Below the pieces are notes generated by a model that saw nothing but the letters and a program-made list of their open reading frames with translations, was not told the origin of the DNA and searched no databases. This document shows, piece by piece, positions 52,401 to 55,400 of a DNA stretch of 64,000 bases. This DNA is from Thermoanaerobaculia bacterium (GTDB lineage: Bacteria; Acidobacteriota; Thermoanaerobaculia; Multivoradales; UBA5704), in the NCBI GenBank assembly GCA_035264905.1, contig DATFPH010000199.1, forward strand, positions 3,820-67,819. Reading direction: 5' to 3'. How positions within the stretch are numbered: position 1 is the first letter of the stretch; each line of letters starts with the position of its first letter. The position numbers and the translations under genes were made by a program.

Positions 52401-55400
52401 CGTCGAGCCACTGCCGCTGCCAGACCGCGTAGTCCGCATACTGGAGCGGCAGCTCCGGCAGCGGCGAGGGCTGGCCCTCGACGAACGCGCGGTACAGCAC
52501 AGCCAGATCACGGATCAGAATTCCGATCGTCCAGCCGTCCGAGATGATGTGGTGCATCGTCACCAGCAGCGCGTGCTCCTCGCCGCCGAGCCGCGCGAGC
52601 CAGGTGCGCAGCATCGGCCCGCGCGCCAGATCGAACGGCTGCCGCCCCTCGGCAAGCGCCAGCCGCTCGAGCTCGGGCCGGCGCCGGTCGGTGGGCAGGC
52701 CCGCGAGATCGACGACCGGCAGGGGGCGCACCGGGTCCGGAGAGATCTCCTGGATCGGCCGGCCCTCGACCGACGGGAACACGGTGCGCAACACCTCGTG
52801 GCGGCGCCGCACCTCGTCGAAGCTGCGGGCGAGGCTCGCCACGTCGAGGGTGCCGCGCAGGTGGATCGTCGCCGGCATGTTGTAGGCCGGGCTCTCGGGA
52901 TCGAGCTGCGCCAGGAACCAGAGCCGCTCCTGGGCGTAGGAGAGCGGCATCTCGACGCCCGCCTCGCGCGCCACCCGGCGGGGGCCGAGGATCGACGCGG
53001 TGCCGGGCGTCTCCCCAACCATCAAATACCCGAGCCGGGCGGCCAGCTCCAGCGTCTCGGCGCGCAACGCGCCGCGGGCCTCCTGCCAGCGGTCGGCGAC
53101 TTTCGCGTCGATCCCCTGGTGGCGGTGGAACTTCGGGTCGCCCATCATGCGCGACTCGGAGTGGAGGCCGTCGGTCATGCGCTTCCCCTGGTAGGGCTCC
53201 AGCATGGACGGCTCGAACGGCAACCCGACGAACGCGCAGACCCCTTCGATGGACGCCTGCGGCGCCTTCACCAGGTCCTCGAAACGCAACCGGAGGATGC
53301 GCTCCTCCGGCACCTCCTGGAGGAAGTCCACGATGTTCCGGTGGCTGAGCAGCCAGACCAGCTCGGCCTGCTCCTCCGCGCCGTACGGGAAGTCGTAGAC
53401 GCGGTCCATGTGCGCCTCGACGTAGGAGTCGATGGTCGCCCGCGGATGGCGCGTCAAATGGATGTAGAGCGGCTCCGCGAACATCTCCTCGGCGTGGCGC
53501 AGGGTCTGGAGGTCGAGCGGATAGCTCGGCGTCTTGTCGACCAGCAGCCGGCCGCCGCTCTCCTGCTGGAGGAGGCCGTAGAACGCCTGCGTCGGCAGGT
53601 CCTCCCGCTCGAAGCCCGCGACCCACTCGCGGGCCGCATCCGCGTCGCAGCCGCGGATCTCCATCACCGAGCGCAGCAGCCCTTCGAGGGCGAAGCTGTT
53701 GCGGCCTGCATAGGCGCGGGCGCGCTCGCCCATCGTGCGGAAGGCGAGCAGCTCCAGCTCGGGCGGCGCGAACAGGCGCGGATGGCCGGCGAGCATGACG
53801 CGGAAGAGCGTCGTGCCCGAGCGGAAGGGGGAGAGGATGAAGACCGCGCGCGGGTTCTTCGGCAATCCGTCGGGCGATGCCTTCGGCACCTCCTGCTCAC
53901 GCGCGAGGCGCCGGACGACCGCTCCATGCAGCGCGTCGAGCGCCTCGGGCGTGGGCACGGCTGCCCCGCTTTCCTGCGCCGCGGCGGAGGCCCGGCCGCC
54001 GAGGCGGGCGGCGGCTTCGGGGTAGCTCCGCTCCAGGTAGGCGGCGAAGTCGGCCACGTTCGGCGCGTCGAAGAGCGCCATGACGTAGACGATCTGGCCC
54101 AGCTCCTCCTGCAACCGGTTGATGAACATCGCGCCCTGGATGGAGTCGCCGCCCAGCTCGAAGAAGCTGTCGTGGACGCCGATCTGCTCGACATGCAGCA
54201 GCTCGCGCCACATGGCGGCCAGGCGCTCTTCCAACGGCGTGCGCGGCGCGGTGAACGGCCGCTCGCGTTCCGCATGCTCGAAGTCGGGCGCGGGCAGCGC
54301 CTTCCTGTCCACCTTGCCGCTCGGCGACAGGGGGAACGCCGGCATCACCACGAACGCCGCGGGCACCATGGCCTCCGGCAGGCTGTCGCGCAGCGCAGTG
54401 CGCAGGTCGGCCGCGGACGGCGCCGGCTGGGTGGTCGGCACGAGGTAGGCGACGAGCCGCGTCTCGCCCCCGGCTTCCGTGCGGGCCAACACCACCGCCT
54501 CGCGCACGCCGGGCTGGCGGCAGAGCGCGGCCTCGATCTCGCCCAGCTCCACGCGCACGCCGCGGATCTTGATCTGGTGGTCGATGCGGCCGAGGAACTC
54601 GATGGCGCCGTCCGCCCGGAAGCGCGCCAGGTCGCCGGTGCGGTAGAGGCGGGCGCCGAAGGCATCGGACGGATCGGACCGATCGGTCGGATTAAAAAAT
54701 GGATTCGGCACGAACCGTTCCGCGGTCAGCTCGGGCCGATGCAGATAACCGCGCGCCAGGCCGACCCCGCCGATCAACAGCTCCCCGGGGACGCCGGTGG
54801 GGACGGGCTCGCCGTGGCGGTCCTGGATGTGGAGCGCGATGTTCGCGATCGGCCGTCCGATCGGCACCGCGCGCCGGCTGCGCGGCTCGCAGGCGTGGAA
54901 GCTCACGTCGACCGACGCCTCGGTGGGGCCGTAGAGGTTGTTGAGCGTGGCCTGCGGGATCTTCTCGAAGAAGCGCTCCTGCAGCTCGTAGGGGAGCGCC
55001 TCACCGCTCGCCATCACCTGGCGCACGGTGCGGCAGGCCTCGTCCAGGTCCTTTCCTTCGAGAAAGAGCTGGAGCATGGACGGCACGAAGTGGAGCGTGG
55101 TGACGCCGTTCTCGCGGATGATCCGCGCCAGCCACGCCGCGTCCTGGTGCGCGCCCGGCGGGGCGACCACGAGCCGCGCGCCGGTGAGGAGCGGCCAGAA
55201 AAACTCCCAGACCGAGACGTCGAAGCTGAACGGCGTCTTCTGGAGCACGCGGTCGGCCGGCCCGAGACCGTACGCTTCCTGCATCCAGAGGAGGCGGTTG
55301 ACGATGCCGCGGTGCGGAATCATCGTCCCCTTCGGCTTGCCGGTCGATCCCGAGGTGTAGATCGCATAGGCCGGATTCGAGGGATCGACGGCCACGGCCA

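Follow-up and report, generated by a model that had tools for sequence, protein, structure and literature searches.

A stretch of 64,000 nucleotides from an uncultured soil bacterium of the Thermoanaerobaculia (contig DATFPH010000199.1, Acidobacteriota; the whole stretch is called "the window" below) contains a nonribosomal peptide synthetase (NRPS) gene in which a sulfotransferase (ST) domain is embedded between a peptidyl carrier protein (PCP) domain and the following condensation (C) domain. By fold and catalytic residues the embedded domain is a sulfotransferase of the family of CurM and the olefin synthase (OLS), and its intact residues predict that it is catalytically competent and dependent on 3'-phosphoadenosine-5'-phosphosulfate (PAPS). 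The arrangement adenylation domain (A)-PCP-ST-C was found to be standard in NRPSs of the Acidobacteriota, as judged from the best 77 of 573 relatives. The best reading is that the ST of the window acts on the beta-hydroxyl group of an N-acyl-serine that is bound to the second carrier, PCP2, the acceptor atom and the timing relative to acylation being inferences.

The NRPS gene is one uninterrupted open reading frame (ORF) of 4268 amino acids (aa), to which all aa numbers refer. Pfam searches and a map based on the domains of the protein itself gave the order FAAL-PCP-C-A(Ser)-PCP-ST-C-A(Thr)-PCP-C-A(Gly)-PCP, in which FAAL is a fatty acyl-AMP ligase loading domain (Table 1). A first-pass annotation of the window had proposed a PCP-ST-C order inside a synthetase as well as priming by a FAAL. 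The former was seen directly in the domain map, and the latter was borne out by NCBIfam FAAL models, which matched the N-terminal 600 aa with E = 1e-120 to 1e-138. With an N-terminal FAAL, a carrier and a starter C domain, the protein has the layout of FAAL-primed lipopeptide NRPSs. Stachelhaus codes of the A domains were read out by alignment to motif-anchored positions. The code DVWHMSLVDK, which had been read as Ser-like before, was re-derived identically, and the codes for Ser, Thr and Gly therefore indicate that the assembly line opens with acyl-Ser-Thr-Gly. No thioesterase (TE) domain was detected in the 4268-aa protein by Pfam or the own-domain map, and no FkbH or FkbM domain was detected in it by Pfam. 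Its C-terminus is an acidic tail behind the last PCP, which looks like a docking helix.

The insert itself, which had been estimated at about 270 aa, is indeed present, but it is larger than had been assumed: the interval between PCP2 and the second C domain (C2) comprises about 350 aa, of which the linker takes up about 50 aa and the ST domain about 295 aa. The PCP2 motif FFELGGDS occupies aa 1700-1707. C2 begins about 6 aa past the end of the ST (start motif at aa 2107-2117, positions 52912-52944), leaving a linker of only a few residues. The 5'-phosphosulfate-binding (5'-PSB) loop, the motif resembling a 3'-phosphate-binding element, the codon of the phosphopantetheinylated serine of PCP2 and the start of C2 were all located where the first-pass annotation had placed them.

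Its assignment of the insert to the sulfotransferases was verified by several results. Pfam family PF13469 (Sulfotransfer_3) matched aa 1807-2018 with E = 1.9e-29 and 103.9 bits (cut-off 27). In a phmmer search of the PDB sequences the ST matched the ST of CurM (4gbm, E = 2.5e-69) and the ST of OLS (4gox, E = 4.1e-66) over about 280 residues, and the next matches were tyrosylprotein sulfotransferases with E-values of only about 1e-4. An AlphaFold2 model of the ST had a predicted local distance difference test score (pLDDT) of 89.3 and a predicted template modelling (TM) score of 0.90. Comparison with Foldseek yielded TM-scores of 0.88/0.90 to 4gbm and 0.86/0.91 to 4gox, and the remaining matches listed for the model all had the sulfotransferase fold, among them retinol dehydratase and LGS1. 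Chance matches to short motifs as an explanation of the insert were ruled out by the E-values together with the structure.

The residues were compared in an alignment of 100 STs, which comprised 98 NRPS-embedded STs from related loci, CurM and OLS. The ST of the window retains 65 of the 66 near-invariant columns. Both putative PAPS-binding elements are present: the 5'-PSB loop SPFRSGTT, with Arg1814, Ser1815, Gly1816 and Thr1818 (motif at aa 1808-1820, positions 53803-53841), and the 3'-phosphate element RHPRATIDS, with Arg1938 and Ser1946 (motif at aa 1936-1946, positions 53425-53457). The columns of these elements (5'-PSB loop, RHP...S) are invariant or nearly so across the 100 STs, and binding of PAPS is predicted from them. 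Glu1835 in PPELE and Lys1910 in VDKTP stand in columns that are conserved in 100 of 100 sequences. According to the alignment with 4gbm, from which the CurM numbering was taken, Arg1814, Thr1818, Glu1835 and Lys1910 correspond to Arg39, Thr43, Glu60 and Lys133 of CurM. Glu60 and Lys133 reportedly have roles in catalysis by CurM, the former as the proposed catalytic base. The position of CurM His62 is occupied by Glu1837 in the window and by Glu in 97 of the 98 NRPS-embedded STs, and His is found only in CurM and OLS. Two further variants of the window are a Phe at the position of the PSB loop that usually holds Pro, a substitution shared by 19 of the 100 STs, and RHPR instead of RHPY. Compared with its closest relative, the ST of a Thermoanaerobaculia metagenome-assembled genome (MAG; L001, 82% identical, the closest in the best 77 loci), the identities were 0.81 for the ST, 0.77 for the A domain and 0.78 for the C domain. 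In comparisons of orthologous modules the divergence of the ST did not exceed that of the adjacent A and C domains, indicating that it is under comparable constraint. A decaying relic was rejected on the basis of this divergence rate and of the conserved columns.

The distribution of the family was determined with the ST alignment in a scan of 185,579 species with one genome each, which yielded the 573 relatives; the best 77 loci were kept, and their domains were mapped by phmmer with the domains of the window as queries. The architectures were read from the genome loci because the protein search listed only proteins of up to about 510 aa. The 77 loci belong mostly to Thermoanaerobaculia, Holophagales and other Acidobacteriota MAGs, and they include one locus of a Ktedonobacteraceae and about 19 cyanobacterial loci, mainly of Nostoc. 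In these loci 89 STs precede a C domain, 7 precede a TE and 5 stand at the end of the protein or contig. Many proteins contain two STs, and those of L025 and L059 contain three. The layout FAAL-PCP-C-A(Ser)-PCP-ST-C-A(Thr)... of the window is repeated in L010 and L011, and also, as far as the sequence length allows, in L001, L003, L005 and L006; the FAAL-PCP-C layout is likewise present in L010, L011, L021 and L024. A profile of the carrier, the ST and the first residues of the C domain was compared with 1.84 billion representative proteins and found 1486 clusters (50% identity) at E <= 1e-30, while match counts at weaker E-values are inflated because the profile includes the carrier domain. 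The best 150 profile matches were mostly megasynthases of 1000-7660 aa. The first-pass annotation had regarded NRPS-embedded STs as rare; this holds for the literature, in which only OciA and DysB are described, but not for genomes, as they are common among Acidobacteriota MAGs. The literature searched contained no account of A(Ser/Thr)-PCP-ST-C modules or of sulfonation-elimination in NRPSs, only OciA, DysB and the trans-acting SulN, and the arrangement A-PCP-ST-C in Acidobacteria seems to be previously undescribed.

The matches listed also included smaller proteins. A large family of stand-alone proteins of about 435 aa (P0021, P0032, P0037, P0053 and many more), which consist of an N-terminal carrier-like domain and a CurM-type ST, is represented in cyanobacteria (Anabaena, Synechococcus, Oscillatoria) and Burkholderiales (Ideonella, Rubrivivax, Rhodoferax). 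The PCP-ST proteins P0001, P0002 and P0003 stop just past the ST with a tail, e.g., ...VDQLSDQDVDSLL, that resembles a C-terminal docking element. Such a tail behind the ST indicates that an ST can be the final domain of a subunit in a multi-protein line.

The substrate of the ST was approached via the codes of the preceding A domains. Among the 58 complete A domains in front of PCP-ST, 27 have codes for Thr, 21 for Ser and 2 for Gly, 7 have DASTVAAVCK-like codes, which we take to be of the Tyr/beta-hydroxytyrosine type, and one has no assigned residue. Codes for Ser or Thr were thus found in 48 of 58 A domains before PCP-ST versus 12 of 71 before PCP-C (odds ratio 23.6, Fisher p = 3e-14, a value that overstates independence because the modules counted are related). 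The STs also cluster by residue class: the nearest neighbour belongs to the same class for 19 of 21 Ser, 24 of 26 Thr, 5 of 6 Tyr-like and all 19 glycerate STs. The hydroxyl group of Ser and Thr on C3 from the thioester is the position that is sulfonated by the CurM and OLS STs and in glycerate. Taken together, the association with Ser/Thr, the clustering of the STs and the C3 position argue for O-sulfonation of a beta-hydroxyl group on the ST's own carrier. The proposal that the beta-hydroxyl of serine on PCP2 is the substrate thereby gained comparative support. A hydroxyl group of the fatty acyl chain was rejected as main acceptor, because the association with Ser/Thr persists in internal modules.

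Two smaller groups of modules differ in their codes. The DASTVAAVCK-like ST modules (L013, L039, L048, L059, L062, L073 and L077) form their own ST subgroup and would give rise to sulfotyrosine or sulfonated beta-hydroxy-Tyr. In L071, a Thermoanaerobaculia MAG, both A domains that precede an ST have the code DILQLGVIWK, the intervening Ser module has no ST, and the two STs form a small cluster of their own; here the acceptor may be the penultimate residue, or the code may be misleading.

The carriers in front of STs were revealed to be a distinct subtype, with a nearest-neighbour concordance of 95/96. They are 0.59 identical to one another and 0.38 identical to PCPs that precede C domains, and they have the signature GGxSIxGAxLINRLQ...EIVxVV..FDxPTVxxLAAYL versus GGHSLLATQ..SR; PCP2 of the window has the former. 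This distinct carrier subtype indicates that PCP-ST behaves as a cassette. The domains behind the cassette appear ordinary. Among the C domains of the data set no specialised clade was found after STs (identity 0.51 within and 0.51 between groups), and a per-column contrast of the same domains did not yield any column that discriminates post-ST C domains from others. The closest solved relatives of C2 in the PDB are elongation domains of the teixobactin synthetase (Txo1, Txo2) and of TycC, and its motif HHIISDG is intact. No CurM-like TE was found after an ST: the 7 post-ST TEs match ordinary NRPS TEs, and the TE of CurM is absent from their PDB matches. Cyclization (Cy) domains were not found in the ST modules of the mapped loci.

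Several known systems resemble the embedded ST in part. Products of OciA carry sulfated glyceric acid. OciA itself, from the cyanopeptolin/oscillapeptin pathway of Planktothrix, contains a sulfotransferase and glycerate-loading domains (PMC2533009), and in DysB an ST domain has been linked to the sulfated glyceric acid of dysinosin (PMC6520454). With their FkbM domain, FkbH-like N-terminus and PCP-ST-C order, the Nostoc loci are of an OciA-like kind, and they were used as the OciA-like reference. The synthetase of the window shares with OciA and DysB the order PCP-ST-C within an NRPS and, as predicted, the C3 hydroxyl of a carrier-bound acyl group as acceptor, and with their class the ST clade (0.51-0.56 identity), the PPELE signature and the ST-associated PCP subtype. 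In OciA and DysB an FkbH domain, accompanied by an FkbM methyltransferase, loads glycerate at the very start of the line. The window differs in having a serine that is selected by an A domain and follows lipo-initiation, and its relatives have STs in several internal Ser/Thr modules as well as in front of TE domains.

With CurM and OLS the ST shares fold and family (42-44% identity, TM-scores of 0.86-0.91), the PAPS elements, the catalytic Glu and Lys, the fusion right behind a carrier and, as expected, a beta-hydroxyl acceptor. In contrast, the STs of CurM and OLS belong to termination modules of polyketide synthases, in which the sulfate serves as leaving group for a dedicated decarboxylating TE, whereas the ST of the window is followed by a C domain and has Glu at the His62 position. 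It is therefore a member of the CurM/OLS ST family, but not part of a terminator system of acyl carrier protein (ACP), ST and TE, as it precedes a C domain and not a decarboxylating TE. A(Thr or Ser)-PCP-ST-TE was observed at the ends of the acidobacterial NRPSs of L047, L055, L056, L057, L064, L074 and L075. This is the peptide counterpart of the ACP-ST-TE of CurM, but with a TE of the ordinary NRPS type; by the logic of CurM it could generate a C-terminal enamide, and otherwise a C-terminal O-sulfo residue.

Two further systems are set apart by their description. SulN of sulfazecin biosynthesis is a stand-alone, trans-acting enzyme for N-sulfonation of a diaminopropionate residue, whereas the ST of the window is embedded and O-sulfonation is proposed. 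In specialised C domains of the modAA type and in C5 of nocardicin biosynthesis, Ser/Thr is dehydrated on the line without activation of the hydroxyl group; the outcome, a dehydro residue, is the same as if the sulfate were eliminated in the window, but in the window the C domain appears ordinary and is preceded by an ST. For SulN, PAPS-dependent sulfonation of a PCP-bound intermediate before its release is cited in PMC11298585.

The following course of biosynthesis is proposed for the window. The FAAL would put a fatty acid onto PCP1, C1 would couple the fatty acyl group to Ser-S-PCP2, and PCP2 would present the N-acyl-seryl thioester to the ST. Glu1835 would deprotonate the serine beta-hydroxyl group, which would attack the sulfuryl group of PAPS. 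The O-sulfoseryl intermediate would be passed on to the ordinary C2 for condensation with Thr and then Gly, and the chain would be continued on a partner NRPS that terminates in a TE. With the sulfate kept in the product, an N-acyl-O-sulfoseryl lipopeptide would result.

That the sulfonation step takes place is highly probable. Sulfonation with retention of the sulfate is the best overall explanation, with about an even chance of being correct, and, given sulfonation, analogy makes retention somewhat more probable than loss. The evidence on the fate of the sulfate, which the first-pass annotation had left open between a sulfated product and dehydroalanine, only tilts to retention. In favour of retention, OciA and DysB, the only NRPS-embedded STs found described, yield sulfated glyceric acid that stays in the product. 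The NRPS STs have identities of 0.51-0.56 to the glycerate-class STs and of only 0.40-0.44 to the activating STs of CurM and OLS, and the Glu at the position of CurM His62 is common to all NRPS ST classes including the glycerate class. In addition, no partner domain looks adapted to elimination, with the ordinary C and ordinary TE domains as the sequences suggest them. Several points weigh against the sulfonated serine and its retained sulfate. The argument for retention is indirect, as it draws on analogy with the nearest characterised relatives and on the finding that no partner domain looks specialised. In the position beta to a thioester a sulfate is chemically predisposed to elimination or to intramolecular substitution, and we know of no non-ribosomal peptides with O-sulfo-Ser or O-sulfo-Thr. 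Genes for PAPS synthesis were not found in the 64-kb window. The relatedness of the modules counted weakens the Ser/Thr statistics, and the two L071 STs behind Gly-coded A domains, next to the one behind a code without assignment, indicate that the acceptor is not always the residue of the ST's own module.

The sulfonation might instead be an activating one, in which the alpha-proton and the sulfate are lost and an N-acyl-dehydroalanine is formed, either PCP-bound or peptide-bound. The elimination could take place while the residue is on PCP2, within C2 or once condensation is complete, the Thr-ST modules of the relatives would yield dehydrobutyrine, and the process would be similar to the phosphorylation-elimination of lanthipeptides and to the ST/TE pair of CurM. 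We regard this as less likely than retention, but it is a live rival with several points in its favour. The STs of CurM and OLS, the closest solved relatives, are activating enzymes that act on a carrier-bound thioester beta-hydroxyl; the ST precedes condensation, the point at which a change of the backbone would be needed; it is strongly tied to Ser and Thr, the precursors of dehydro residues; single synthetases carry up to three STs; and its structural neighbours include retinol dehydratase and LGS1, in which sulfate serves as the leaving group. However, post-ST C domains mix with ordinary ones without any discriminating column, and the post-ST TEs do not resemble the TE of CurM. The sulfated beta-hydroxyacyl-ACP of CurM is reportedly stable until the TE acts, and spontaneous loss of the sulfate is thus not assured. 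Furthermore, the nearest characterised NRPS STs keep the sulfate (DysB according to its paper, OciA by its sulfated product), and 7 STs stand behind Tyr-like codes, for which, if plain Tyr is meant, beta-elimination is impossible.

The sulfate might also leave by substitution, with C-beta being attacked by the oxygen of the preceding amide to yield an oxazoline, the biological counterpart of a Burgess-type cyclodehydration, or by a thiol, amine or carboxylate to yield a cross-link or ring. The chemistry is plausible for an N-acyl-O-sulfoserine, the ST modules are without Cy domains, and Cys-like A domains (DLYDFSLVWK) follow some ST modules (L034, L052, L070). Since the sequence offers nothing specific to substitution, an adapted partner domain was not found and the residues after ST modules are heterogeneous, this course appears very improbable. 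Equally small is the probability that the serine of the module is left untouched by its ST, which would then be a structural relic or would modify another hydroxyl group, such as that of a 3-hydroxy fatty acyl chain or of an upstream residue. The STs of L071 behind Gly-coded modules, with an ST-less Ser module just upstream, and the variants of the window (Phe for Pro in the PSB loop, RHPR for RHPY) would fit such a role. However, 65 of 66 near-invariant positions, including the reported catalytic positions of CurM (Arg39, Thr43, Glu60 and Lys133) and the PAPS elements, are present, the ST diverges at the rate of the essential A and C domains, the Phe variant is found in 19 of 100 STs, and the association with Ser/Thr extends to internal modules far from the fatty acid.

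The features of the window are compiled in Table 1.

Table 1. Positions of the synthetase domains and of neighbouring genes in the window.
Feature	Position	Strand	Remarks
NRPS gene	46456..59262	-	4268 aa; one uninterrupted ORF; Pfam and own-domain map
FAAL loading domain	57523..59262	-	aa 1-580; NCBIfam FAAL models; Pfam AMP-binding and AMP-dom_DIP2-like
PCP1	57301..57531	-	fatty-acid acyl carrier; GGDS at 57415-57438
C1	55855..57243	-	lipo-initiation condensation domain; HHIAADG at 56752-56772
A1	54268..55857	-	adenylation; Stachelhaus code DVWHMSLVDK (Ser)
PCP2	54028..54258	-	ST-associated carrier subtype; phosphopantetheinyl Ser codon 54142-54144
PCP2-to-ST linker	53878..54027	-	about 50 aa; own-domain map
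ST	52993..53877	-	aa 1796-2090; CurM/OLS family; Pfam, phmmer, alignment, AlphaFold2 model, Foldseek
C2	51628..52977	-	apparently ordinary elongation condensation domain; HHIISDG at 52534-52554
A2	49987..51630	-	code DFWNIGMVHK (Thr); module without ST
A3	46768..48348	-	code DILQLGVIWK (Gly)
MacB/FtsX-type ABC permease	59429..61909	+	divergent from NRPS gene; candidate exporter
Ribbon-helix-helix antitoxin-like gene	62418-62693	-	91 aa; in the gap between MacB and second NRPS genes; weak BrnA/YlcI matches
Second NRPS gene, 3' end	62931..64000	-	PCP-TE; runs past window end
Mrr_cat restriction-endonuclease-like gene	44857-45672	+	directly downstream of NRPS gene
UDP-glucose dehydrogenase	39078-40505		polysaccharide cluster
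DegT aminotransferase	34353-35396		polysaccharide cluster
Sulfotransfer_3-GT2 fusion	31455-33383	+	642 aa; Sulfotransfer_3 E = 1.3e-10; within polysaccharide cluster
Pyruvyl transferase	16306-17919		polysaccharide cluster
ABC-2 Wzm/Wzt-like pair	3560-5176		polysaccharide cluster

The second NRPS gene could be followed further in a metagenome contig with the same locus, in which it ends with ...PCP-C-PCP-TE (L078:5919-8408). As the FAAL-NRPS ends in a carrier and an acidic tail, the second NRPS is its probable terminating partner. The terminal module of the second NRPS consists of a C domain and a carrier without an A domain. In L010, a Thermoanaerobaculaceae chromosome, a similar end follows right after the ST (A(Ser)-PCP-ST-C-...-TE). 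Downstream of the NRPS gene a polysaccharide cluster occupies positions 1-44,000, with many genes for glycosyltransferases of families 2 and 4 (GT2, GT4), an ABC-2 transporter and a pyruvyl transferase. The Sulfotransfer_3-GT2 fusion within it suggests a sulfated polysaccharide and indicates that the organism uses PAPS elsewhere. Sulfatase or hydroxylase genes were not found in the 64-kb window.

Two kinds of insertions were observed in the synthetase. Low-complexity inserts rich in Pro, Thr, Asp and Ser are present in A1 (aa ~1585-1605) and A2 (aa ~3010-3035), in both cases directly preceding the conserved LYRTGD/LYRSGD motif. A GC-rich repeat of 56-60 nt lies in frame within the coding sequence of C1 (56810-56869), just upstream of HHIAADG, and adds about 20 aa; the insertion is specific to the window, as none of the 8 first C domains, orthologous or related, with which it was compared contains it. 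Two more copies lie beyond the MacB gene as an intergenic inverted pair (62221-62276 and 62325-62384). The repeat looks like a repetitive extragenic palindromic (REP) or miniature inverted-repeat transposable element (MITE)-like element, inserted here into a loop on the surface of an NRPS domain.

Although Acidobacteria rank among the most abundant bacteria of soils, hardly any of their natural products have been described. The results reveal a large coherent set of acidobacterial NRPS clusters that is marked by a common, undescribed on-line tailoring step, and they suggest lipopeptides in which serine and threonine are present in either sulfated or dehydrated form. Retention of the sulfate would make the products the first non-ribosomal peptides to contain O-sulfo-serine or O-sulfo-threonine, in some cases with several sulfate groups. 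Loss of the sulfate would instead provide assembly lines with a new enzymatic route to dehydro-amino acids, and the significance would rise sharply; elimination would represent a third activation chemistry beside the phosphorylation or glutamylation of lanthipeptides and the direct dehydration by modAA domains. It is tempting to speculate, although we consider it doubtful, that PCP-ST is a PAPS-driven dehydration device of NRPSs, widely used by Acidobacteria, in which O-sulfonation of Ser/Thr and loss of the sulfate lead to dehydroalanine or dehydrobutyrine; variants of it would produce oxazolines or, where a TE follows the ST, C-terminal enamides. As a portable two-domain unit ahead of an ordinary C domain, PCP-ST is also an attractive part for NRPS engineering, and, whichever the fate of the sulfate, the cassette is worth annotating in genome-mining tools.

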